Shown here: positions 3,817-46,487 of the stretch, one piece after another
How the letters are laid out: each line of letters opens with the position of its first letter
Position numbering within the stretch: position 1 is the first letter of the stretch
Assembly: GCA_043819555.1 (NCBI GenBank)
Contig: JBDREQ010000073.1
Span: 1-64,000 of the forward strand
Direction of reading: 5' to 3'
Length of the DNA stretch: 64,000 nt
Source of the DNA: Candidatus Zixiibacteriota bacterium
GTDB lineage: Bacteria; Zixibacteria; MSB-5A5; GN15; JAAZOE01
Notes under the pieces: generated by a model
Seen by the model: only the letters and a program-made list of their open reading frames with translations
Told to the model about the DNA's origin: nothing
Databases searched by the model: none
Position numbers and translations under genes: made by a program

Positions 3817-4677
3817 TTGGGTCAAAAAACAAATCCCATAGGTTTCAGACTCGGAGTAACAAAGTCCTGGAATTCAAAATGGTTTTCCGTGAAATCTGTT
3901 GCTGATCTTATTCAAGAGGACCTGCTGATAAAAAAATATATTTCTACTCGCCTCGATAATGCCGGGCTGGCTAAAGTTGAAATAATTCGAGCCCCAAAGA
4001 AGGTGACCGTTGACATCCACACCGCCCGCCCGGGCATTGTAATTGGACGCCGGGGGGCCGAAGTTGACAAATTAAGAGAAGAATTGCAGCTCCTGGCCAA
4101 TCAAGATATAACTCTCAATATTATCGAGGTCAAAAAGCCTGAATTGTCAGCCCAGCTCGTAGCCGATTCAATCGCCAAACAATTGGAAGGGCGCGTTTCT
4201 TTCCGTCGGGCAATGAAAAGATCTCTTTCAGCTACGATGAAAATGGGCGCCGATGGCATTAAAATTATCTGCAACGGCCGTCTAAATGGGGCTGAAATCG
4301 CTCGCTCGGAAAAGTACATGGAAGGACGAGTACCGCTTCATACCCTGCGTGCTGATATAGATTACGCAATCGCCACCGCACATACAACCTATGGGTGTAT
4401 CGGCGTCAAAATATGGATTTGTAAAGGCACTATTCTGGATCGAGGTGACTTTACTCCTGAGGGACGCGAAGATAAAATGTTTGGTGATGGAACTGAAGCC
4501 GCTCGCGGCGCTCATAGAGGAGAAAAAAGACATAAACGCAAACCTGCCGGACGAGTTCGCAGGGATAATATCTCCGACAAATCTAAAAAGAGAGGGGGCG
4601 GGAAGCCTCGCAGGCAGAGAAAACCGGGCGGCAAGCCTCCTGCTAATAAAACGATGAAAGAAGACGGAGACAAATAG
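3817..4677 (+). CDS. rpsC: 30S ribosomal protein S3 with basic C-terminal tail
   Basis: [36 protein letters not shown] start after a GGAGG RBS. Confidence 0.98.
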
Positions 4678-4679
4678 TC

Positions 4680-5102
4680 ATGTTAATGCCGAAACGGACC
4701 AAGTATAGAAAAACCCAACGAGGTCGCCGGCGTGGAAACGCTTATAGAGGCTCAAATATTGATTTTGGGCAATTTGCGCTGAAAGCAGTGGAAGCCTGCT
4801 GGTTAACCAATCGTCAAATCGAAGCGGCTCGTGTAGCTTTGACCAGACATATTAAGCGTGGCGGAAAAATCTGGATTCGCGTTTTTCCCGATAAGCCGGT
4901 CACTCAAAAACCGGCCGAAACCAGAATGGGTAAGGGTAAAGGCGCTCCCGAATATTGGGTCGCGGTCGTGAAGCCCGGTCGAATCCTTTTTGAAATAGAA
5001 GGCGTTGATATAAAACTTGCCCGAGCGGCGTTGGATCTGGCTTCCCACAAACTGCCGATAAAAACCAAATTTGTCACTCGTACTGAATTGGAAGGTATTT
5101 AA
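4680..5102 (+). CDS. rplP: 50S ribosomal protein L16
   Basis: [23 protein letters not shown]. Confidence 0.99.
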
Positions 5103-5104
5103 CA

Positions 5105-5368
5105 ATGCGCATGGAAACTCTCAGGGATCTGACAAAAGATGAACTGCTTCAAAAACGTGATGAAATGAAGCAAGAGTTATTTAATCTAAAATTGCGTCGC
5201 GGCATCAGCCAGCTTGATAATCCGCTGAAGCTGCGTACCCTTCGCCGTGATATTGCCAAAATAGAAACAGTTATTAGCGAAGACAAAAAAAATATAAGAA
5301 AAATCGTCGATCAGGCGGGATCAATTCTCGAACAGGCCGATGAGACAAAAGAAATAATCAGTGAATAA
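5105..5368 (+). CDS. rpmC: 50S ribosomal protein L29 (C-terminally extended)
   Basis: ELFNL...[11 protein letters not shown]; position between rplP and rpsQ. Confidence 0.93.
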
Positions 5369-5387
5369 TACAGGAGTCGCACCAGAG

Positions 5388-5645
5388 ATGGCTGAAAGAA
5401 ACCGGAGAAAAACCCGAATCGGTACCGTAATCTCCAATAAAGCAAACCAAACCCTGGTTGTCGAAGTCAATCGTACTTTAAGACATCCATTATATGAGCG
5501 CATTATCCGGACAAAATCGAAATTGTACGCTCATGATGCCAGGGGCGAGGCCGGAATTGGAGATGTAATTCGGGTAATGGAATGTCGGCCGCTATCAAAA
5601 ACTAAACGCTGGCGCCTTGTGGAAATTATGGAGAAGGCCAAGTAA
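5388..5645 (+). CDS. rpsQ: 30S ribosomal protein S17
   Basis: HPLYER...AHD...[13 protein letters not shown] at 5388 follows an AGGAG RBS. Confidence 0.97.
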
Positions 5646-5673
5646 AGTCTAACGCGGTCTGGGAGATGCGAAG

Positions 5674-6042
5674 ATGATTCAGGAATATACTCGACTGGTG
5701 GTAGCTGATAATTCCGGGGCAAAGCGTGTTATGTGCTTTAAGGTCCTTGGAGGCTCCAAAAAACGTTATGCTCGAGTCGGAGATATAATAGTTTGCACCG
5801 TAAAAGACGCCATACCAGGCGGCACGGTCAAGAAATCTGAGGTTTGTAAAGCGGTTGTCGTCAGAACAACCAAGGAAATTCGCCGTAAGGATGGTTCATT
5901 AATTCGGTTTTCCGATAATGCGGCCGTGATTATTAATGATCAGAATGAACCGCGCGGAACTCGTATTTTTGGACCGGTAGCCCGAGAGCTTCGTGAAAAG
6001 CAGTTTATGAAAATAATCTCTTTGGCTCCGGAAGTTATTTAA
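5674..6042 (+). CDS. rplN: 50S ribosomal protein L14
   Basis: [27 protein letters not shown]. Confidence 0.99.
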
Positions 6043-23511: not shown

Positions 23512-25875
23512 ATGATGATTAAGAACTTCTTTAAGATCGCCATCAGAAGTATCATAAAGCAGCGATGGTATGCGGTCATAAATATAATTGGGTTAGCCAT
23601 TGGGATATCTTGCATAGCTATGGCATTCCTTTACGCGCAGTATGAATTCAGCTTTGACAGATTCCATAAAGATGCTAATAGGATTTACAGGGTAGTCAGC
23701 AAGGAAACAGGTGTTTCAACGCCTTCCGAAATGTCGCCGACTATGATGGAAAGATACCCGGAAGTTGAATCGGCAACCCGTTTACAATTCGGCAGCTACG
23801 ATAAGAATCGGGTATTGTTTTATTACCATGATAAATCTTTTTATAGTGAAGGTTACTTCGCGGATGAGCGTTTTTTTGACGTTTTTTCATTTCCATTTAT
23901 AATGGGTGAACCGCGGAAAGCCTTAACCGAGCCTAATACTTTGGTAATTACGAAAGGTTTTGCCCGGAAGTATTTCGGAGACGACGACCCGATCGGGGAA
24001 ACAATTAGTTTTGACAAGAAGTATGACCTCCGAGTGACAGGGGTCATTGATGATATTCCTTCCAATTCGCATCTTCAGTTTGATTTCCTTGTTTCTTTTG
24101 CCACCTATGCCGCGACAGCATCAGGCAAATCCTACACGCGGTGCTGGGCCTGCAACCTTTTTCTGACTTATGTCAAATTGCATGATAATGTGGAGATTGC
24201 CCCTTTGAACGGCAAACTGGATGAAATGATATTGGAAAAAACAGGGACTCATTCCGATTATTTTATTCAACCGATGACAGACATTAGATTATTCTCAGGA
24301 TTGGACCGCGAGCCGGGCACATCCAATATCAGCGATATATATTATGTCCATCTGGCGCTTTCCATTTCCCTGTTAATATTGATATTAGGATGTCTAAACT
24401 ACATTAATATCGCCACCGCCAGGATTTCATCCCGGGCCAATGAAATCGGAATTCGTAAAATGATTGGAGCCGGTAAAAGACTAATAATAATCCAATACAT
24501 AATTGAATCATTGTTAATGACATTCTTTGCGATGATATTATCGGTAATCCTGATGGAGCTTCTAATTCCATGGGTTAATTCCTATGCAAACATAGATATT
24601 GAAATTAGTTTTATAAATAATCCACCTTTTCTGCTCTTTGCAATATTTCTTTGTTTCGCGGTTGGCATAGTTGCCGGCGGTTACCCGGCCCTGGTTCTTT
24701 CTGCCATCAAGCCTTTGAGAGTAATAAATAATATATTTATCGCTGGCAGAGATGGCGTACGGTTGCGCCAGCTTTTTGTAATAATTCAATTCGGTGCAGC
24801 CGTCTGTCTCCTTATTATCACGTTAATTATTAATTTGCAGCTATACTATGTGGATAATTTAGATGTCGGTTATGATAAGAATAATATCGTCGTGATGAAA
24901 CTGAAGGGCGAAGATTTTGAGAAAAACAAGCAAAGCATTAAAAATGAGATACTAAAGCATTCCAAAGTTCTGGGTGCGACATATTCAGATGCATTGCCGC
25001 ATCTCATTTTGAATTCAACAACTAATAAAGTCGCCGATGAAAAAGGAGATTCTGCCGATCTATCAATATATTTTTGTGAAGTTGATGAGAATTTCACTGA
25101 TGTCTTTAATATTTCTATAGTAGGGGGCAGGAATTTCTCACCAGAGTTTAACGATACCCGGGAATCATCGGTCATCCTAAATGAATCTGCCATAAGGGCA
25201 ATCGATAAAGAAAATCCGATTGGCCGGCCCTATACAATGGGGGGAAATATTGACGCAAAAGTTATCGGTGTTGTGAAAGATTTTAATTTTCTGCCATTGC
25301 ATAAATCGATTGCACCATTGGTATTATTATACGGCGATGGAAAATATCTATCCGTAAAAATACAAAGCGGCAGCCGCGAATCTACAATAAAAAGTATTGA
25401 AGAAATAGTAAGAAGATTGGTCCCGGATTATCCATTTGAGTATAAAATGCTGGATGATTATTACCGCAGTGCATATTCCTCGGAAAACAATTTGAATATT
25501 GCCTTAAATGTCTTTGCCGCCATTGCCATCATTGTAGCCTGTCTGGGTTTGATGGGCCTGTCATCTTTCTCCGCGGCGCAAAAATCAAAGGAAATCGCCA
25601 TCCGCAAAGTATTGGGCGCATCAGTATCTGATATTGTGAAAATGCTTTCAAAAGAATATATTGTTCTGGTTGCGATTGCTAATATTATTGCCTGGCCGAT
25701 TGCTTTCTATGTTGTAAAAACCTGGCTGGAAAATTTTGTCTATCGCGTCAATATTGAATTATCAATGTTCTTCGCGGCCGGTTTTTCCGCGATACTTATT
25801 GCCCTGATAACTGTCAGTTTTCAGGCGATTAAAGCCGCCCTTGCCGATCCAATTGATGGCATCCGCCATGAATAA
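23512..25875 (+). CDS. MacB/FtsX-type ABC transporter permease (two MacB_PCD + FtsX repeats)
   Basis: INI.GLAIG, EIGIRK..GA and EIAIRKVLGAS, A...P...RHE end. Confidence 0.93.
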   Translation: MMIKNFFKIAIRSIIKQRWYAVINIIGLAIGISCIAMAFLYAQYEFSFDRFHKDANRIYRVVSKETGVSTPSEMSPTMMERYPEVESATRLQFGSYDKNRVLFYYHDKSFYSEGYFADERFFDVFSFPFIMGEPRKALTEPNTLVITKGFARKYFGDDDPIGETISFDKKYDLRVTGVIDDIPSNSHLQFDFLVSFATYAATASGKSYTRCWACNLFLTYVKLHDNVEIAPLNGKLDEMILEKTGTHSDYFIQPMTDIRLFSGLDREPGTSNISDIYYVHLALSISLLILILGCLNYINIATARISSRANEIGIRKMIGAGKRLIIIQYIIESLLMTFFAMILSVILMELLIPWVNSYANIDIEISFINNPPFLLFAIFLCFAVGIVAGGYPALVLSAIKPLRVINNIFIAGRDGVRLRQLFVIIQFGAAVCLLIITLIINLQLYYVDNLDVGYDKNNIVVMKLKGEDFEKNKQSIKNEILKHSKVLGATYSDALPHLILNSTTNKVADEKGDSADLSIYFCEVDENFTDVFNISIVGGRNFSPEFNDTRESSVILNESAIRAIDKENPIGRPYTMGGNIDAKVIGVVKDFNFLPLHKSIAPLVLLYGDGKYLSVKIQSGSRESTIKSIEEIVRRLVPDYPFEYKMLDDYYRSAYSSENNLNIALNVFAAIAIIVACLGLMGLSSFSAAQKSKEIAIRKVLGASVSDIVKMLSKEYIVLVAIANIIAWPIAFYVVKTWLENFVYRVNIELSMFFAAGFSAILIALITVSFQAIKAALADPIDGIRHE

Positions 25876-26065
25876 ATAATGCATACATTAATTGACGAAA
25901 AGAGACAAATGTTGTGCGCGGGTGACCCATAGCCACATCATAAAAACTTCAGACAAGGTGTAGCGGCAACCCTCGGGTTGTCGTTTGGTATTCTACCGTT
26001 AAGTGAAAAATAATGGGTAATTCGTTCTTGAGTTTAATTGGGTTATTACATATTATTGATTTAAT

Positions 26066-26139
26066 GCCCCCGTAGCTCACCAGGACAGAGCATCGGTTTC
26101 CTAAACCGAGTGCAGCAGGTTCGAGTCCTGCCGGGGGTA
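26066..26139 (+). tRNA. tRNA-Arg(CCT)
   Basis: GCCCCCG/CGGGGGT acceptor stem, TCGGT-TTCCTAA-ACCGA anticodon arm, GCAGGTTCGAGTCCTGC T-arm. Confidence 0.94.
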
Positions 26140-26150
26140 ATATATATATA

Positions 26151-26179
26151 TTGACAATCATTGCGCTTCTCAATAGATT
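26151..26179 (+). promoter_or_regulatory. Putative sigma70 promoter at islet start
   Basis: TTGACA-N17-TAGATT. Confidence 0.55.
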
Positions 26180-26299
26180 TTTGCATAGATATTAATGATC
26201 TACTGCTTGAGCGTACGCTTGATATTCAAAAGTAAGTTGTGGATTACTCTGTCGGCGTACATCAGCGGTTCTCTATTTTCAAAACGAAGGAGGAATAGG

Positions 26300-26587
26300 A
26301 TGAAGAAGGTGCCTTATTACAAGACCCTTTTAAGCGAAGGTATTGACTTAACTAAGAACGTGAGTAGCCTAACAGGTCTGAGCTATGAAAACACATATCA
26401 TAAGATTAATCTACTTGATCCACCCCTCACTGATGGATTGGGTCATATTAGTATAGATTATTATAAGGATTTTGCCAGATCATATGGTGCATCCGATCAT
26501 ACAATCGCAAAATCACTAACCAATATTACAGGTTTAGGTTACGAGAACATACTTATTCAAGTCAAAATGCCTAAAATAGATTACTAA
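26300..26587 (+). CDS. Small hypothetical protein with internal repeat (95 aa)
   Basis: AGGAGG RBS before ATG 26300; repeat K.(V/L)(S/T).(L/I)TGL.YEN occurs twice. Confidence 0.65.
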   Translation: MKKVPYYKTLLSEGIDLTKNVSSLTGLSYENTYHKINLLDPPLTDGLGHISIDYYKDFARSYGASDHTIAKSLTNITGLGYENILIQVKMPKIDY

Positions 26588-26648
26588 ACCTGTGATCCAC
26601 AGTTTGCTGCGGAATTGATTGATGGATTTACAACTGCGTATATTCAAT

Positions 26649-26680
26649 TCTAATGGTTCGAAAATCGTTCAATACGGGTA
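26649..26680 (+). repeat. Direct repeat copy 1
   Basis: TCTAATGGTTCGAAAATCGTTCAATACGGGTA. Confidence 0.9.
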
Positions 26681-26836
26681 CATGCAATTATTAATTGACA
26701 GAGTCTTACCAGGATTTCTGAGACAGCCGTTGTTATTATTTCTCATAAGACTGATTATGAGCTTTTGGAAATTGCCTCTAATAATAGTATATTGGCAACA
26801 TCATCAGCCCGTTAATAATGGAGCATAAATATTCAA

Positions 26837-27766
26837 ATGAGCAATAATAAATACAAAGGGACCGTGTTTTTCATTGACGATGAAAAGAGAATGCAGGATT
26901 CCATGAAAGTCTTGCTTGAGGATGAAGGATATCGTGTCTTCACTACGGGCAGCAATGATGAGGCCATACTAATCATGAATGATTATCGGAATGACATAGA
27001 TATTGTGATTCAAGATGGTAATCGACCACAAGGACAATGTATGGGGGATGTAGACATTCCGTCACGGGACGTTAGTGTTGCCTTCTTCCTGAGATATATA
27101 AGAAAAATACTTCCAGATATTCCTGCCGCATTCTGCACTTGGAGAAATGACATTGAATTTCTTAAAGCAGTCGAATCATTCCAGAATACATTCTACATTC
27201 CCAAGCCGGTGGAATATCCTTGTTTCAGTGCACTGATTGAAGCGTGTACAGGGAATAGAGAAGTACTTTATAATAGCGAATCTGTGGATCGTCAAATCTC
27301 ACTCGTTCAGACTGAGTTCATTGATGCAAGTGATGATTTGATAAAATATCTTACAATAAACCCTGATTACATGTATAACCTCAACCCGAGAAAGTTCGAA
27401 GAAGTGGTTGCGAAGCTTCTGGAAAGGGCAGGATTTTCTATAACCCTGACCCCAGGTACACGAGATGGAGGGAAAGATATTTATGCGATCCATAAAACCG
27501 ACGTTGGTCACATGCTCATACTCGTTGAGTGTAAAAGACATAATAAGGATAACAAGGTTGGTGTAGATGTCGTGAGATCCTTATATGGAGTAAAAATGGC
27601 AGAGAGGGCCAATATGGGTGTAGTCGTTACAACGTCATTCTTTACACGCGATGCATATGAATTTAAGAAGCAGGTTGGATATGATCTCAGCCTTCGAGAT
27701 TATAATGATCTAACTGATTGGTTACGAGCATATTGTAATAATCCTGACGGCGCATTAAATATTTAA
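26837..27766 (+). CDS. Response-regulator receiver domain fused to Mrr-type (PD-(D/E)xK) restriction endonuclease
   Basis: N-terminal REC (FIDDE, VIQD, CT, IPKP); C-terminal Mrr_cat (PRKFEEVVA.LL...G, DGGKDI, VECKR, VVRSLYG, VTTSFFT..A). Confidence 0.88.
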   Translation: MSNNKYKGTVFFIDDEKRMQDSMKVLLEDEGYRVFTTGSNDEAILIMNDYRNDIDIVIQDGNRPQGQCMGDVDIPSRDVSVAFFLRYIRKILPDIPAAFCTWRNDIEFLKAVESFQNTFYIPKPVEYPCFSALIEACTGNREVLYNSESVDRQISLVQTEFIDASDDLIKYLTINPDYMYNLNPRKFEEVVAKLLERAGFSITLTPGTRDGGKDIYAIHKTDVGHMLILVECKRHNKDNKVGVDVVRSLYGVKMAERANMGVVVTTSFFTRDAYEFKKQVGYDLSLRDYNDLTDWLRAYCNNPDGALNI

Positions 27767-27872
27767 ATATTGGAGAAATGACCGCTATCTAAATGAGACA
27801 AAATCCTTTTTGTTCTCAATACAAGGCTAATAGAAAAAACATCTTATCTTATTCATACCGCGGAAACTCGAA

Positions 27873-27905
27873 TCTAATGGTTCGAAAATCGTTCAGTACG
27901 GGGTA
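27873..27905 (+). repeat. Direct repeat copy 2
   Basis: TCTAATGGTTCGAAAATCGTTCAGTACGGGGTA; 29 of the first 30 nt identical to copy 1. Confidence 0.9.
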
Positions 27906-27944
27906 TGTAGATTAATATTTAAACAAGATACAAAATTATATCAT

Positions 27945-28952
27945 ATGAAAGTTTCGATATCTCAACTCATTAGCGAACCAAAAAACGAAGGAAGACATGT
28001 TGTTATTCTTGGAGCCGGTGCGAGTAAACAGGCTTTTCCTGATGGCGATATGAATGGTAAAATCCCACCAATAATGAATGAGCTATTTGGATTACTCAAT
28101 ATTGGGCAAAAACTGAAAAATACAGGGATTAACTTTAAGAATGAAAACTTTGAAGAAGTTTATAGTGAACTTTCAGTAAAAATGCCTAATTCCCAGATAA
28201 TAGAAGATATCGATTTAAACATTAGAGAATATTTTTCCTCCCTGCAAATTTCTGCAAATCCAACTTTATATGATCATTTGATTCTCTCATTAAGGCCAAA
28301 AGATTTTGTATTTACATTTAATTGGGATCCCTTTCTATATGAAGCCTGGAATCGCAATATTCATAATGCACCGTCACCCAAAATTGCCCATTTACATGGA
28401 AATGTCCGCATAGGGTATTGTTTAGAGCACAAAGTATATGGAGAAAATGGTCGAAAATGTCCAAATTGTAATAATCTTTTTTGCCGAACCCCATTACTTT
28501 ATCCAGTCGCTGTTAAAAATTATAATGATGATCCATTTATTAAAAGTGAATGGGAGTTATTTAGTGAAAGTCTATCTAAGGCAAGCCTGGTTACAATCTT
28601 TGGATATAGCGCCCCATCAATTGATGTAGAAGCTGTTAATATTATGCAAAATTCATGGGGAAGAGATAATCGATTTATAGAACGAATTGAAGTCATTGAT
28701 ACCAAGGAAAAGGCTGAAGTTGAGAAGACATGGAGTCCTCTTGTTGTAAGAAACTACCTTGATTATTCACAGGATTTCTATCAATCCAGAATTGCGTCAC
28801 ACCCAAGACGAACATGTGAGCAATTTCTTCATACGAATTTTCAAGGACATTTTGTCGAGGAAAATCCGTTGCCTATCAATGCAGATTTTGATGAGTTATA
28901 TAATTGGCTATCACCTCTATTAAAGGCCGAAACCGAAATTGAAAAATCCTAA
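27945..28952 (+). CDS. SIR2-like (SIR2_2-type) protein
   Basis: VILGAGAS, FTFNWD, HLHGN, C..H...CPNC, IFGYS sirtuin-like motifs in canonical order. Confidence 0.82.
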   Translation: MKVSISQLISEPKNEGRHVVILGAGASKQAFPDGDMNGKIPPIMNELFGLLNIGQKLKNTGINFKNENFEEVYSELSVKMPNSQIIEDIDLNIREYFSSLQISANPTLYDHLILSLRPKDFVFTFNWDPFLYEAWNRNIHNAPSPKIAHLHGNVRIGYCLEHKVYGENGRKCPNCNNLFCRTPLLYPVAVKNYNDDPFIKSEWELFSESLSKASLVTIFGYSAPSIDVEAVNIMQNSWGRDNRFIERIEVIDTKEKAEVEKTWSPLVVRNYLDYSQDFYQSRIASHPRRTCEQFLHTNFQGHFVEENPLPINADFDELYNWLSPLLKAETEIEKS

Positions 28953-29019
28953 ATAGAACAGTAAAATATAAGTTTGCTAAGCGAGAGAGTTATTCGGCGT
29001 AGAATTATTTTTCAACAAT

Positions 29020-29058
29020 AAAAAAAAGGACCTAATTCAAAATCAGGTCCCTTTTTAT
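29020..29058. terminator. Bidirectional intrinsic terminator between convergent genes
   Basis: AAAAAAAAGGACCT-loop-AGGTCCCTTTTT. Confidence 0.75.
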
Positions 29059-29102
29059 TATCGTTCAAGCTGCTTTTGGTAAGCAGGCGTTGTAGTCAAA
29101 GA

Positions 29103-29474
29103 TTACCAGCGTCCGCCGCCGCCATCGCGACCGCCACGACCACCGCCGCGACCACCGCCGCCGCGACCGCCGCCGCCGTAGCCACCACGACCACCACCGC
29201 CACGACCACCACCGCCGCCGCCACGATTTTCAGTGCGCGGGCGAGCTTCGTTGACGTTTAGATTACGTCCTTTGAACTCGGACTCATGCAAAGCCGCTAT
29301 AGCTGCTTTGGCCTTTTCGTCATCATCCATTTCAATAAATCCAAAACCTTTGGACTCACCACTGTACTTGTCTTTGATGATGTTGATACTTGAAATTTCA
29401 CCATGCTCCGCAAATATTTCGCGAAGATCATCTTCCGTCGTTTGATACGACAGGTTTCCTACGTAGATTTTCAT
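29103..29474 (-). CDS. RRM RNA-binding protein with Gly/Arg-rich tail
   Basis: RNP2 IYVGNL, RNP1 KGFGFIEM, VNEARPR, RGGGG repeats. Confidence 0.96.
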   Translation of the reverse strand: MKIYVGNLSYQTTEDDLREIFAEHGEISSINIIKDKYSGESKGFGFIEMDDDEKAKAAIAALHESEFKGRNLNVNEARPRTENRGGGGGGRGGGGRGGYGGGGRGGGGRGGGRGGRDGGGGRW

Positions 29475-29761
29475 TCTACTCTCCGTATTACGTTTATCGC
29501 ATGCCGGAGCCGACCCTGATCCAGAAATCCTCGACCCTCGATAAACCCATTATTGCGCGTTATTGCGCTTCGTCCTTATCTAAGATTCTTGGAAGAATTG
29601 GTCAGGAGAACAAATCTTTACGAAACCATAGTCCAGGACATTTCTAATTCACATATCTATATACGGCAAAAAAGGCCAAAGTCAACACCGTTTTTACAAA
29701 TTATTTTGTTGGCGAAGCCAGAATTTAAACATAAAATGTAGCAACATTTCGGGAGGATTAT

Positions 29762-30370
29762 ATGAGCAATAAATATATCTTCACCGCTCTTTTGCTGGTT
29801 TGTGCGGCGGGACTGGCCTGGCCTCAGTCAAATCCGGTCGGACAGGGCAATTATCTGGCCGGCGGAAAGCTGTATTTTCAAAGCCAGACAGGAGAGGCTT
29901 ACGAAGATGAAAACGGAGAATCGACGACAACAATCAGCATAAACCCGGATTTTGGGATATTTTTTGCCGATGGATTTTTTCTCGGAGCCGCCGGCGAAAT
30001 GCAGTCAATCGACATTGGAGAGAAAAGGCGGCTGGAATATTCCATCGGTCCAAAGATTGGGTATTTTTACAACAGTGACAAATATCGCGAGGATAATGAA
30101 GGAGCCGTATTTCCATATGCAACGCTCTATTTTACTTATGGAGAATTTCAAAATCTCGAGGAATTTGAAATCAATTATTCAAAAACAGCGATCGGCATAA
30201 ATCTCGGTATGATCAAAATGATTTCTCCCGCCTTTGGATTGGATGTGGGAATCAAAATTTCACATGATACCTTTGAAATCAAAGGAGAGGATCTCGCCGG
30301 TATGGAAGGAACCTCCGTTCGGATTGGGATCGGTTTGGTTGGCTTTTTGGGTAAAAGATTTAATTTGTGA
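29762..30370 (+). CDS. Outer-membrane beta-barrel protein
   Basis: Signal peptide, alternating amphipathic beta-strands, G..F near the C-terminus. Confidence 0.7.
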   Translation: MSNKYIFTALLLVCAAGLAWPQSNPVGQGNYLAGGKLYFQSQTGEAYEDENGESTTTISINPDFGIFFADGFFLGAAGEMQSIDIGEKRRLEYSIGPKIGYFYNSDKYREDNEGAVFPYATLYFTYGEFQNLEEFEINYSKTAIGINLGMIKMISPAFGLDVGIKISHDTFEIKGEDLAGMEGTSVRIGIGLVGFLGKRFNL

Positions 30371-30397: not shown

Positions 30398-31645
30398 ATG
30401 CGTGTCATGCCAGGCAGTAATATAAAGAATCCAGCAATTTCGATTCCGCAAGCCCGCAGGCTGGCGATTAACGCTCAACTGCTTGACGGCAAGTCGAAAG
30501 TCCCTGCCGGTAAAGAGGGGATTGCTCGAACAATTGAGACTATCGGATATGTGCAAATTGACACGATTTCTGTTGTTGAACGGGCTCACCGCCATACACT
30601 CTGGTCGAGACATCAGGATTTCAATGGACGGGTGCTTCACGAATTGCAGGCCAATGACCGGAGGATATTTGAGTACTGGGGCCATGCCATGTCGTACCTG
30701 CCTATGTCCGATTATCGGTACTACTTGCCTCGAATGAAAAAGTTTTGCGATCCTTACAGTAAATGGGAAAAAACGAGATATGAAAAATACGGTCATTTGA
30801 TGAAGCCGGTTCTGGAACGGATACGCAAAGAAGGGCCCTTGGGCTCCAAAGATTTCGCTCAGATATCGGATAAAAAGAGCGGAACATGGTGGGATTGGCG
30901 GCCGGCCAAAGTTGCGCTCGAGATGCTATTTTGGTGCGGTGAACTGATGATTACCGCAAGACATAATTTCCATCGGGTATATGATTTGACCGAACGGGTT
31001 TTGCCCGATTCGATAGATAAAACTTTTCCCGATAATGAAGAAGTCGGCAGGTTTTTTATCAGGCGTGCTCTCAAGTCTTACGGTGTTGCCAAAGAAAGAG
31101 AAATTCGCGAGCATATTCGAGCGGCTGATAATGAGGCGATTGAAAATTCGTTAAATGCGATGATTGAATCCAAAGAGATAATTAAGGTTTTGGTCGGCAA
31201 AAATAATGGTGATTATTATACTTTGCCGGAATCGCTCGAAAAACTTAATAATCTTAAACGGACCCCAAAAAAGATTCATATTCTTTCGCCATTTGACAAT
31301 TTGATAATTCAACGCGAACGAACCAAAAAGTTATTTGATTTTGACTATACAATTGAATGCTATGTTCCGGCGGCGAAAAGAAAATACGGCTATTTCGTTT
31401 TGCCGATTTTATGGGGTGATAAATTTGTCGGCCGTATGGATGCCAAAGCGGAAAGAAAGAAAAAGGTATTAGTGATTCGCAGATTGCATTTTGAAGACGG
31501 CTCTAAAAAACATGATAGTTTACTTCCAGCACTGGGTAAAAAACTACATGAATTCGCACGGTTTAACAGATGCGAGAGGATTGAGGCTGAGGGAGTTATT
31601 CCGTCAAAGATGGAAACAGCCATTAAGAATTCCTTGCAATATTAG
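30398..31645 (+). CDS. YcaQ/AlkZ-family (HTH_42) crosslink-repair DNA glycosylase
   Basis: VQIDTISVVERAH (QxD), FEYWGH, LSPFDNL, KRKYGYFVLPIL, VGRMDAK. Confidence 0.9.
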   Translation: MRVMPGSNIKNPAISIPQARRLAINAQLLDGKSKVPAGKEGIARTIETIGYVQIDTISVVERAHRHTLWSRHQDFNGRVLHELQANDRRIFEYWGHAMSYLPMSDYRYYLPRMKKFCDPYSKWEKTRYEKYGHLMKPVLERIRKEGPLGSKDFAQISDKKSGTWWDWRPAKVALEMLFWCGELMITARHNFHRVYDLTERVLPDSIDKTFPDNEEVGRFFIRRALKSYGVAKEREIREHIRAADNEAIENSLNAMIESKEIIKVLVGKNNGDYYTLPESLEKLNNLKRTPKKIHILSPFDNLIIQRERTKKLFDFDYTIECYVPAAKRKYGYFVLPILWGDKFVGRMDAKAERKKKVLVIRRLHFEDGSKKHDSLLPALGKKLHEFARFNRCERIEAEGVIPSKMETAIKNSLQY

Positions 31646-44394: not shown

Positions 44395-46487
44395 TGGAAC
44401 CGGTACAAGTATTTTTAATTATTTCGTTCTGTCTGCTTCTGCTTACCATTTTTCTGGTTATTTTATTCAAGAGATTCTCATCTTACAACCGTCCACTTTT
44501 ATATTTTTCCTTTATAAATATCATCGGGATCGCGGCGTTTTATATTGAAGTTGGACAATTCCCGCAGCTTTGGAAAACGGCGCATATCATGGTGTACGCC
44601 TTTATATCATTTATGCCTTTTGCATGGTACGTTCTTTCGAGCCGCTGGGCCCAGGATACAGGTGAATTTGAATCAAAAAGCAAAATGATTCCCCGTTTAC
44701 TGTTTATCCTGGGGGCAATCATTTTTGTAATTATGATCGGGCAAAAGGCCGTTGATGTTGTCATTATTGGCGACCGCTGGTTTATATCGCTGCTAAAATG
44801 GAGATTTTTGATAAATCTGAATTTTATTTTTTGCCTTACGGCCGGAGCTTATGCCATTGAAAATCGATATCGCTCATCACTGGGTTTATCGCGGGATAGA
44901 ATAAGAAAGTCATTTTTCCTGCTGTTGACGTATGTGATAAATTTTCTGGCTATGGCAACGATTGCCATAATCTATGGACAAATCAGTGATTATCTTTTGA
45001 CCTTGAATTTTTTCCTCGCCGGACTAATTTGTTTGTTTTATGTAAGGCATGTAATAAGATTCGAACCGGACAATGATGGCATCATAATTTCCCGCAAGGC
45101 ATCATATTCATCAATCGTAGTTGTAGTTTTTGGTCTGTATTTTTTATCCATTGGACTAACTGGAGAGATATTGAGAAAACTTAATTTGAATGAGGGTACA
45201 TTTATTTCAGTTGTTGTCCTTATCCTATTGGGCTCTACTTTTATTTTCTTCCTCTTCTCTCAGGCCAGACGATCGCGATTGACCGGATTAACTGATGGCG
45301 GTCACATATCTTCAGGACTAAAATATGGTGTGGAATGGAAGGAATTCGCCGAAGAAATTTCTGCCACAATAGAATTTGATGAGATCTATCAGCGCACCAA
45401 AAGCTTATTGCATCGCATAATGAAAATTGAGGATTGCTTCTTTATTCTAAGGGAATCCGAACCGGGTTGTGATTACAGATTATTGATCGGTAAGGACATT
45501 GACCATATAATTCCCGCAAATAATTTGAATCAACTATGCGATTGGCTGCACCGACTTGGACGGCCGATTGAAGTGAGCGATATCGGTGATGCCGGTGAGA
45601 CCGAGCTGAATCAATATCTGGATTTGGAAAAACTCATTCCGTTTACTGCGTTTCTGCTGGTTCCATTTGCGGCGCGGCATCAATTCATCGGCATTTGGGG
45701 GATTGGTTATCATAATTCGGGACGAAAACTCCTCAGCGATGAGATAGGTTTTATTGAGGCTGCGGCCGGACCGGTGGCATTGACTTTGCACGGCGCGCGA
45801 ATTACCGAAGAGCTTGTAACGTCGCGTGAAATTGAATCATACCACCGGTTTTCATCGTTTGTACTGCATGATCTTAAGAACTCCGTAGGGATGCTATCGA
45901 TGCTGTTGCAGAATGCTGATAAAAACATGGCTAATCCGGATTTTCAAAGAGAAGCCTTAATTACAATCGGAAAGGCGGTCGATCGCCAGACGAAAATAAT
46001 ATCACGCCTTACCGAAGAGCGTGGCGAGGATAAGTATTTTATTAAGGAAGCCCGCCTTTCGGAATTAATCAAGTGGGCTACAGAAAGAGTCCGGATCGAT
46101 ACCATGCCCCAGGTTGACTTAAGGTGCGATATTGACGATGGCGTTAGAGTATTTGTGGATCCCGAAAAAATAGGATCGGTATTTGACAATTTAATTATGA
46201 ACGCGGTCGAAGCTATGCCGGATGGAGGGGTATTGTCAATCAATACTTTTTCTGAAGCAGACGGAGAAGCGATTGGTATAAAATTTAGCGATACCGGTTG
46301 CGGAATGGATGCGGATTACCTTAATTCAAAATTATTCCGGCCATTTAGCTCGACCAAAAAGCATGGTCTCGGAATCGGTATGTATCAATCACGGGAAATT
46401 ATTTTCAAACATCATGGTCGCCTGGAAGTAAAAAGTGAACCTGGTCGGGGAACCGATTTTATAATCTATTTGCCCGGAGAAATATAA
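44394..46487 (+). CDS. prsK: PrsK-type sensor histidine kinase (multi-TM, GAF, HATPase)
   Basis: SFVLHDLKN H-box typical of PrsK, NLIMNAVEA, DTGCGM, GLGIGMYQ. Confidence 0.85.
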   Translation: MEPVQVFLIISFCLLLLTIFLVILFKRFSSYNRPLLYFSFINIIGIAAFYIEVGQFPQLWKTAHIMVYAFISFMPFAWYVLSSRWAQDTGEFESKSKMIPRLLFILGAIIFVIMIGQKAVDVVIIGDRWFISLLKWRFLINLNFIFCLTAGAYAIENRYRSSLGLSRDRIRKSFFLLLTYVINFLAMATIAIIYGQISDYLLTLNFFLAGLICLFYVRHVIRFEPDNDGIIISRKASYSSIVVVVFGLYFLSIGLTGEILRKLNLNEGTFISVVVLILLGSTFIFFLFSQARRSRLTGLTDGGHISSGLKYGVEWKEFAEEISATIEFDEIYQRTKSLLHRIMKIEDCFFILRESEPGCDYRLLIGKDIDHIIPANNLNQLCDWLHRLGRPIEVSDIGDAGETELNQYLDLEKLIPFTAFLLVPFAARHQFIGIWGIGYHNSGRKLLSDEIGFIEAAAGPVALTLHGARITEELVTSREIESYHRFSSFVLHDLKNSVGMLSMLLQNADKNMANPDFQREALITIGKAVDRQTKIISRLTEERGEDKYFIKEARLSELIKWATERVRIDTMPQVDLRCDIDDGVRVFVDPEKIGSVFDNLIMNAVEAMPDGGVLSINTFSEADGEAIGIKFSDTGCGMDADYLNSKLFRPFSSTKKHGLGIGMYQSREIIFKHHGRLEVKSEPGRGTDFIIYLPGEI

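Follow-up and report, generated by a model that had tools for sequence, protein, structure and literature searches.

A receiver domain fused to an Mrr-type nuclease within a variable tRNA-Arg-associated interval of a Candidatus Zixiibacteriota genome

Gene and domain architecture

The window analyzed here is the whole stretch of 64,000 nucleotides (nt) from Candidatus Zixiibacteriota bacterium (GenBank assembly GCA_043819555.1, contig JBDREQ010000073.1, positions 1 to 64,000). On its plus strand, at positions 26837 to 27766, lies an open reading frame (ORF) for a protein of 309 amino acids (aa), referred to here as REC-Mrr, in which an N-terminal receiver (REC) domain is joined by a helical linker to a C-terminal endonuclease domain of the Mrr type. 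The ATG is the earliest start in an open frame of 315 codons. The gene and its parts are listed below, with the lines of evidence for each in parentheses.

26837..27766, plus strand: REC-Mrr gene (ORF listing, Pfam, homologue searches, family alignment)
26858..27217, plus strand: REC domain, approximately residues 8 to 127 (Pfam, PDB profile search, AlphaFold model, Foldseek, ESM Atlas, residue counts)
27218..27376, plus strand: helical linker, residues 128 to 180 (secondary structure of the model, profile starts of Mrr-only relatives)
27377..27724, plus strand: Mrr_cat PD-(D/E)xK nuclease, residues 181 to 296 (Pfam, PADLOC, catalytic residues in 25 of 25 family members)

The fusion is genuine, and both of its domains are real. 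At an E value of ≤1, the Pfam matches of REC-Mrr are Mrr_cat (PF04471; residues 181 to 296; 97.8 bits against a cut-off of 21), Response_reg (PF00072; residues 10 to 126; 30.6 bits against a cut-off of 30.2), and NA-iREase1, which is weaker and overlaps the Mrr_cat match. No N-terminal modification-reading DNA-binding domain is found among them, the N terminus being occupied by the receiver. The original prediction, a note made from the letters of the DNA, had named both halves, and hidden Markov models thus support it on each, with both scores above their cut-offs. It had also held that the receiver retains its acidic pair, phosphoacceptor aspartate, threonine, and Lys-Pro and that the nuclease retains D...ECK. 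All of these are present, as D14-D15-E16, I58-Q59-D60, T101, and K123-P124 in the receiver and as D214 and E231-C232-K233 in the nuclease, together with E188. Three residues ahead of K123 is Y120, at what we take, from CheY, to be the position of the receivers' aromatic switch residue.

Family conservation

The family alignment contains 26 rows, 25 of them distinct (P0091 is the gene of locus L033, described below), and column counts were made over the 25. Mrr_cat is matched by all 26 rows and Response_reg by 21 (best E, 3e-17), with five lacking a Response_reg match at E ≤ 0.01. In the nuclease, E188, D214, E/D231, and K233 are each found in 25 of 25 members, and position 231 is D in four. 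The receiver quintet is kept nearly as widely: D60 is present in 24 members, D/E14 and D15 in 22 each, and S/T101 and K123 in 21 each. The rows that depart are mainly the most distant ones (P0095, P0115, P0128, and P0174), whose receiver halves are aligned with less certainty. The sequences are only 28 to 49% identical, and retention of both active sites at such divergence argues that both chemistries are in use. Conservation of the quintet, in particular, supports the view that phosphorylation chemistry is relevant.

Structural evidence

Because the receiver match is marginal on the single sequence, the REC assignment was tested with profile, family, model, and Atlas evidence. A family profile of REC-Mrr and five full-length relatives matches solved receiver domains with a best E of 2.9e-9 (PDB profile search). 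The AlphaFold model of REC-Mrr, which rests on an alignment of six sequences, has a predicted local distance difference test (pLDDT) score of 85 to 95 over residues 10 to 100 and follows the (beta-alpha)5 order, with strands at 9 to 13, 33 to 37, 56 to 59, 97 to 101, and 118 to 122 and helices between them. In Foldseek, the REC part of the model fits the isolated receivers KdpE, CheY4, and CckA-REC with a target template modeling (TM) score of 0.78 to 0.89 and a root mean square deviation of about 3 Å, and the top matches for the whole model are the response regulators PorX and RssB. In the ESM Atlas, Response_reg is found in all 30 of the nearest clusters by features (score, 0.93), with TM scores of 0.65 to 0.71 by structure. 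On this combined evidence, which goes beyond the single-sequence Pfam score, the REC assignment is firm.

The linker (residues 128 to 180) contains a long helix at 148 to 174 in the model. Its C-terminal part is conserved along with the Mrr module even in relatives that have no REC domain, and the profile matches of these Mrr-only relatives begin at about profile positions 129 to 160 (profile search), which indicates that the helix ahead of the nuclease belongs to the shared module. Where the alpha-beta-beta-beta core of a PD-(D/E)xK nuclease would lie, the model has a helix at 184 to 197 and strands at 201 to 204, 214 to 220, and 225 to 231, at low confidence (pLDDT, 50 to 65, and below 50 past residue 233), so that the interface between the domains cannot be read from the model. 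The homodimer prediction scored 0.26 against a mark of 0.42, which counts neither way.

The beta3-alpha3 loop of REC-Mrr (residues 61 to 75) is unusually long. Across the family, the loop that follows the acceptor aspartate is 10 to 14 residues longer than in the aligned solved receivers, and it carries an Arg in 16 of 25 members, followed by Pro in 12 of 25 and Gly in 16 of 25. Canonical receivers have Met-Pro where the family has this Arg-Pro.

Distribution of the fusion

The REC-Mrr fusion is rare and patchy and is distributed like an accessory gene. A word-indexed search of 5.8 billion proteins, confined to lengths of 169 to 541 residues, returned 86 matches; five of these (P0002 to P0006; 40 to 49% identical) cover at least 95% of the query, and the others cover the nuclease half only. 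The same kind of word-based search with the REC half alone found nothing beyond REC-Mrr itself. When 1.84 billion representatives were searched exhaustively with a family profile, 49,016 of them matched at E ≤ 0.001, nearly all with Mrr-type domains, and 22 of the best 150 are full-length fusions of 285 to 318 aa.

Within the phylum, the receiver half used as the query has a real match in one of 285 genomes, that of the window (E, 4e-110), the other matches being ordinary receivers of at most 36 bits. There is no paralog of REC-Mrr in its own genome, where the remaining receiver matches reach at most 21 bits. A scan of one genome for each of 185,579 species gave 229 stretches with a relative, and among the best 80, which were kept, a single one reaches into the receiver: L033, from a metagenome-assembled genome of Cloacimonadota. 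Weaker full-length relatives could sit among the remaining 149. No receiver-bearing relative was found among the best 80 of 485 metagenome stretches. One of the metagenome loci, L138, had been a candidate for reaching into the receiver and was rejected as a P-loop nucleoside triphosphatase (NTPase)-Mrr protein. Viral contigs (five loci), plasmids (289 matching records of the 72,556 searched), and phages (7 matching records of the 50,697 searched) hold the nuclease half only, and no plasmid, phage, or viral record covers 80% of the REC-Mrr query. One DNA sequencing run yielded a 221-nt contig identical to positions 26873 to 27093, plus generic tRNA and GC-repeat pieces; it left most of the stretch uncovered and gave no joint across the cassette.

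Relatives of the nuclease half

The closest Mrr domains, which are 43 to 58% identical to that of REC-Mrr, are C-terminal modules behind other N-terminal domains. The partner domains in the table of 86 matches are PF13191 (23 proteins), PF13156 (8), PF13809 (6), and PF06114, PF09848, and PF13271 (one each). A Pfam scan of nine of these switch-Mrr relatives, which are 323 to 467 aa long, found Tubulin_2 in three, a P-loop of the AAA_16/ATPase_2/nSTAND1/NB-ARC type in three, Peptidase_M78 in one, DUF4062 in one, and no partner domain in one. PADLOC matches the Mrr half to defense nucleases (PDC-S02, mREase_IV, mREase_II, and the ZorD nuclease end) and gives one further, weak match, to PD-T4-6, over residues 4 to 59. 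The placement of the nearest Mrr domains behind varied switch or sensor domains marks the Mrr module as a swappable effector; with the PADLOC matches, it makes the nuclease an effector of the kind used by conflict systems, in this case coupled to a receiver.

The variable interval

The REC-Mrr gene lies in an interval bounded on the left by a tRNA-Arg gene and on the right by a likely terminator. The other features of this interval and its right flank are as follows.

26065..26140, plus strand: tRNA-Arg (anticodon CCT), left edge of the variable interval (ARAGORN; Rfam tRNA, 61.4 bits)
26300..26587, plus strand: small ORF, 95 aa, with its ATG after a Shine-Dalgarno-like AAGGAGGA; a longer frame of 130 aa starts at 26195
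26633..26678, plus strand: direct repeat copy 1, 158 nt ahead of the REC-Mrr start codon
27857..27902, plus strand: direct repeat copy 2, between REC-Mrr (90 nt from its stop codon) and the SIR2-like gene (42 nt away)
27945..28952, plus strand: gene for a stand-alone SIR2-fold protein, 335 aa (model, Foldseek)
29022..29056, no strand assigned: hairpin with T-runs on both sides, a likely terminator that lies between the SIR2-like and convergent RRM genes and closes the variable interval on the right
29103..29474, minus strand: gene for an RRM-type RNA-binding protein with a Gly/Arg-rich tail, conserved right flank (RRM_1, 81.7 bits)

The guanine-plus-cytosine (GC) content is 0.35 to 0.38 at 26 to 29 kb and mostly 0.42 to 0.47 around it. 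In a genome of the same genus (G001), the DNA to the right of this islet, from the RRM gene on, is 81% identical and that on the tRNA side is 90% identical, and every gene in between differs. The REC-Mrr gene is absent from this equivalent interval, and the SIR2-like gene is not related to its positional counterpart in G001. An Rfam scan of positions 25800 to 29800 found the tRNA only, and the small ORF at 26300 to 26587 has no Pfam, PADLOC, or NCBIfam match. The contig carries no tyrosine recombinase, all five Phage_integrase matches of the genome being on other contigs.

The 335-aa protein has no sequence match in Pfam, PADLOC, or NCBIfam, and none of the 120 listed members of its family, which numbers 2,983 homologs, has a precomputed Pfam domain. 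Its model (pLDDT, 89) has 396 PDB matches at E ≤ 0.001, and all 40 of those listed are SIR2-type proteins or SIR2-containing complexes. In Foldseek, SIR2 subunits from SIR2/HerA antiphage complexes rank first (E, 2e-9; TM, about 0.5), ahead of classical sirtuins. In an alignment of 26 sequences, a GAGAS-type glycine loop, N126/D128 (NWD), and three cysteines are among the residues that never vary, and H151 is found in at least 90%. By its model, the product has a SIR2 fold; no HerA gene adjoins it. Since the SIR2-like gene is far commoner than the fusion and does not lie beside the fusion in L033, the two genes are independent.

Behind the fusion gene in L033 (positions 114 to 2478 and 4325 to 5885) come a weak Gp49-like gene (19.3 bits, below the cut-off), an HTH_3 gene, a gene of no recognized type, and a DDE transposase gene. 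The Gp49-like gene overlaps the HTH_3 gene, and the two are likely a toxin-antitoxin pair. The contig begins 113 nt ahead of the fusion gene, so that upstream neighbors cannot be assessed there.

Just past the right edge of the interval lies a gene for an AlkZ-like DNA glycosylase (30398 to 31645; PF06224, 225 bits), which G001 conserves. A GC-rich repeat with a period of 12/15 nt (29103 to 29228) codes for the Gly/Arg-rich tail of the RRM protein, and contigs of unrelated organisms were matched there.

A repeat-bounded cassette array

The direct repeat that brackets REC-Mrr is 46 nt long in the window, with 85% identity between copies and an exact 23-nt core (repeat search); no such pair is expected there by chance, and these are the sole copies in the genome. 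Unexpectedly, a DNA search of 30 relatives found the same repeat, about 45 to 50 nt long across loci, in other genera of the same taxonomic family. The window and ten fetched regions contain 19 copies in total, those outside the window being as follows.

L015 (1875, 2631), L016 (269), L017 (2934, 3820), L018 (182), L019 (7728): repeat copies, in the same direction within each locus
L020 (2078, 3888, 4844), L021 (2210), L022 (2424), L023 (535, 1127), L024 (2423, 3096, 4966): repeat copies

Copies run in one direction within each locus, are spaced 0.6 to 1.9 kb apart, and lie just 3' of diverse ORFs, and the first copy is at most about 1.5 kb from a homologous tRNA-Arg in G000, G001, G004, G009, G010, and G012. 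Five of the eight intervals between copies hold one plus-strand ORF, namely REC-Mrr, three proteins of no recognized type (152 to 212 aa), and one GNAT protein; the three others have minus-strand ORFs. Other genes that adjoin repeat copies encode an MBL-fold protein, an outer-membrane barrel, a second GNAT protein, a weak TIR_2-like protein (below the cut-off), and a convergent HAD hydrolase. The HAD hydrolase gene, on the opposite strand, directly adjoins the repeat in four loci (L015, 169 to 813; L018, 246 to 890; L020, 4015 to 4698; L024, 3225 to 3869), which come from four genomes (G001, G003, G004, and G009); in these genomes the gene may lie at the distal limit of the array.

When surveyed with a 19-nt core at up to two mismatches, core copies with zero or one mismatch were found only in the taxonomic family of the window (6 of the 13 other genomes, plus G000). 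Outside the family there are two-mismatch matches only, in 10 of 146 genomes, and a backwards-pattern control gave 5 matches in 160 genomes.

Several origins for the repeat were considered and set aside. Its local alignment to the tRNA-Arg 3' end scores 17, against 14.4 ± 2.9 for shuffles, 403 of 2,000 of which are as good; its scores against the tmRNA (C71:31395-31752) and flanks are also within those of shuffles. A site like attC or a structured RNA was rejected, as RNAalifold gives -1.83 kcal/mol on the 19 copies, with no covarying pairs and no conserved hairpin. A plain promoter is not supported either, since 5 of the 19 copies precede a gene on the opposite strand and sites of the sigma-70 type, the type scanned, are at chance levels (16 in the islet against 12.5 ± 3.7 expected).

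With same-orientation repeats 0.6 to 1.9 kb apart, single unrelated genes behind a tRNA, and no recombinase inside the array, the arrangement resembles both tRNA/tmRNA island pile-ups and integron cassette arrays. However, it differs from integrons in that the repeat has no attC-like hairpin and the contig has no integron integrase, and from tRNA/tmRNA islands in that the repeat is not significantly like the tRNA-Arg 3' end or the tmRNA. The repeat has the look of a boundary site in a gene-cassette array of a kind not described before. This anatomy suggests a variable hot spot, where a recombinase acting in trans would add or swap single genes at a conserved linear site and where REC-Mrr would be one such cassette; neither an excised nor an empty form of it turned up in the sequencing reads.

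Proposed mechanism and its alternatives

Phosphorylation of the receiver aspartate reshapes the alpha4-beta5-alpha5 face and commonly drives dimerization or release of an output domain, and PD-(D/E)xK nucleases are commonly dimeric in order to cut both strands. From such general knowledge of receivers and PD-(D/E)xK nucleases, we infer a nuclease gated by phosphorylation, and we likewise infer the direction of the gating (on versus off), dimerization, the DNA target, and a role in defense. The best reading of REC-Mrr, which we hold tentatively and at a little short of an even chance, is a stand-alone, phosphorylation-gated effector nuclease of the response regulator type. In it, a receiver phosphorylatable on Asp60 would keep the C-terminal Mrr-type endonuclease in check. 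Phosphorylation of Asp60 would change the alpha4-beta5-alpha5 face, and the long linker helix would pass the change on, whereupon the nuclease domains would pair or open and cut DNA. Because the protein has no modification-reading domain, nothing would direct the cutting to modified DNA. Infected or stressed cells would stop growing or die (abortive infection), or cells that misregulate the protein would be killed.

The phosphodonor would be a resident histidine kinase acting in trans or a small molecule such as acetyl phosphate. As the original prediction had it, there is no kinase gene in the islet: none of the 40 HATPase_c matches of the genome falls at 26 to 29 kb, and the nearest on the contig is at 46158 to 46478, about 18 kb away. 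The variable interval has no other stand-alone REC-like frame, and the other REC matches of the genome are on other contigs. Since a single-gene cassette without a kinase is not assured of a matched kinase in each host, acetyl phosphate or cross talk from resident kinases would be the likelier input. A bolder version, which we regard as improbable, is a kinase-less, single-gene immune or suicide switch: the receiver would read the general phosphodonor state (acetyl phosphate or stray phosphorelay flux) and convert it into DNA destruction, and the gene would spread as a one-gene cassette in an undescribed, integrase-less, hairpin-less, repeat-bounded tRNA-Arg array.

Several observations weigh against a phosphorylation-gated effector. 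The Response_reg score of the window sequence exceeds its cut-off by only 0.4 bits, and the nuclease half is modeled poorly, with pLDDT below 50 past residue 233. The loop insertion and the Arg beside the acceptor Asp could alter or abolish kinase docking. In neither of two contexts, the window and L033 (the latter cut 113 nt upstream), does the fusion have a linked kinase, phosphatase, or buffer receiver, and a mobile gene that needs a matching kinase in each host is awkward. Furthermore, the cassettes of the relatives are mixed (GNATs, an MBL-fold protein, an outer-membrane barrel, and many unknowns), which makes the locus a variable hot spot and not a dedicated defense island. Taken together, the Mrr relatives and the setting nevertheless favor a role in conflict or defense.

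Some of these observations would fit a receiver that works independently of phosphorylation, in the manner of atypical receivers or pseudo-receivers, and serves only to dimerize or autoinhibit the protein or to dock a protein of phage or host. The lack of a linked kinase, the unusually long beta3-alpha3 loop at the acceptor site, the borderline Pfam score together with the 5 of 26 members that have no Response_reg match, and the few members without one or more quintet residues all point this way. However, pseudo-receivers typically lose the phosphorylation residues, whereas D60 is kept in 24 of 25 members here and the other four in 21 to 22 of 25, and we consider such a receiver unlikely. A serious rival, which we rate as somewhat less probable again, inverts the logic into a guard or addiction switch: housekeeping phosphorelays or acetyl phosphate would keep the receiver phosphorylated and the nuclease silent, and upon infection or energy collapse the short-lived aspartyl phosphate would decay and the nuclease would fire. 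The sequence gives no sign of the direction of the switch, and in characterized enzymatic response regulators phosphorylation usually activates the output. Yet the same sequence evidence serves this inverse logic, a sensor-less single-gene cassette fits a protein that reads the general state of the cell, and passages of the Detocs preprint (bioRxiv 10.1101/2023.01.24.525353) propose that a separate receiver absorbs stray phosphate, which shows the phosphate level in use as a safety signal.

Two further possibilities place REC-Mrr outside immunity. It could be a regulated housekeeping or stress nuclease (for example, for DNA turnover in starvation) or a regulated Type IV-like restriction enzyme under one of the approximately 40 kinase-type ATPases. 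The 40 HATPase_c matches in the genome and the fact that the cassettes of relatives at the locus are not mainly defense genes are in line with this, but the gene occurs in 1 of 285 genomes of the phylum, is absent from the equivalent interval of the same genus, and encodes no domain that reads DNA modification, which leaves this possibility with a small probability. Alternatively, a singleton in the phylum that is orphaned from any partner could be a decaying or silent passenger, without function in its present host; the frame, however, is intact at full family length and the catalytic and acceptor residues are all present, and we find this very unlikely.

Relation to known systems

Mrr proteins have an N-terminal domain that binds DNA and reads modification. 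REC-Mrr shares with the Mrr-type Type IV enzymes a C-terminal Mrr_cat domain with an intact D...ExK, but the modification reader is replaced by REC; because this DNA-reading domain is absent, we do not file REC-Mrr as a Type IV restriction enzyme. The closest nuclease relatives, which are STAND/AAA_16-type ATPase-Mrr, tubulin-like GTPase-Mrr, ImmA/IrrE peptidase-Mrr, and DUF4062-Mrr proteins, arrange their parts in the same order and share the conserved linker helix. Regulation in them falls to an NTPase or peptidase domain instead of a receiver, and the 169- to 541-residue length window cannot show whether these switch-Mrr relatives belong to longer forms. PorX and RssB, the best structural matches of the whole model, have a similar arrangement of receiver and helical linker. 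However, their outputs (a PglZ phosphodiesterase and a PP2C-like adaptor, respectively) are unrelated to the nuclease, and they have known kinases or partners.

The nearest known principle is that of Detocs. Passages of the report by Rousset et al. (bioRxiv 10.1101/2023.01.24.525353) describe an antiphage defense in which the kinase DtcA feeds a receiver-effector, DtcC, and a lone receiver, DtcB, acts as a buffer. According to the same passages, the receiver aspartate of the effector is required for defense, and the usual effector is PNP, with a minority of operons having an REase-fold (PF18742), TOPRIM, or membrane effector. On that description, the resemblance of REC-Mrr to DtcC, an N-terminal receiver ahead of a cell-killing effector, is one of architecture alone. 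Detocs differs as a three-gene operon with the DtcA kinase and the DtcB buffer, neither of which is at the REC-Mrr locus, and its REase domain is PF18742, whereas REC-Mrr uses Mrr_cat (PF04471). None of the nine PADLOC matches of REC-Mrr is a Detocs model, coverage of Detocs by PADLOC not being established.

Elsewhere, in the portions of each article consulted, Kaur et al. (2020, PMC7159879) report receiver domains that occur sporadically, without kinases, among the effectors of NTPase-based conflict systems; Bellieny-Rabelo et al. (2021, PMC8011034) report a receiver-like domain with a kinase-like partner near restriction-modification genes, unfused to a nuclease; and the DefensePredictor article (PMC13092281) mentions REC in a figure legend only. 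We found no description of a receiver plus Mrr_cat fusion in the full-text literature searched, although the supplementary effector lists of Detocs may contain related architectures.

The original prediction had suggested that such a protein would link two-component signaling to restriction or abortive infection. That interpretation is supported in part. The part that concerns conflict or defense holds up as the favored role, whereas REC-Mrr is not strictly an Mrr-type restriction enzyme, and the Detocs passages, which show a receiver-REase effector with a kinase, mean that the concept of coupling signaling to a nuclease is no longer new. Detocs thus supplies the principle; in the literature searched there is no account of a kinase-less Mrr_cat form that stands alone or of its setting as a cassette.

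Significance

Receiver domains are the commonest signaling switch of bacteria, and Mrr-type nucleases are a common killing module in defense. A fully equipped receiver on a nuclease that appears to move as a single gene raises the question of what phosphorylates REC-Mrr in a new host and whether the phosphate arms or disarms it. The answer would show whether immune effectors can tap the general phosphorylation state of the host, and REC-Mrr would also offer a small (309 aa), chemically switchable nuclease. The repeat-bounded tRNA-Arg array is a second, independent lead, on the exchange of accessory genes in uncultured bacteria.

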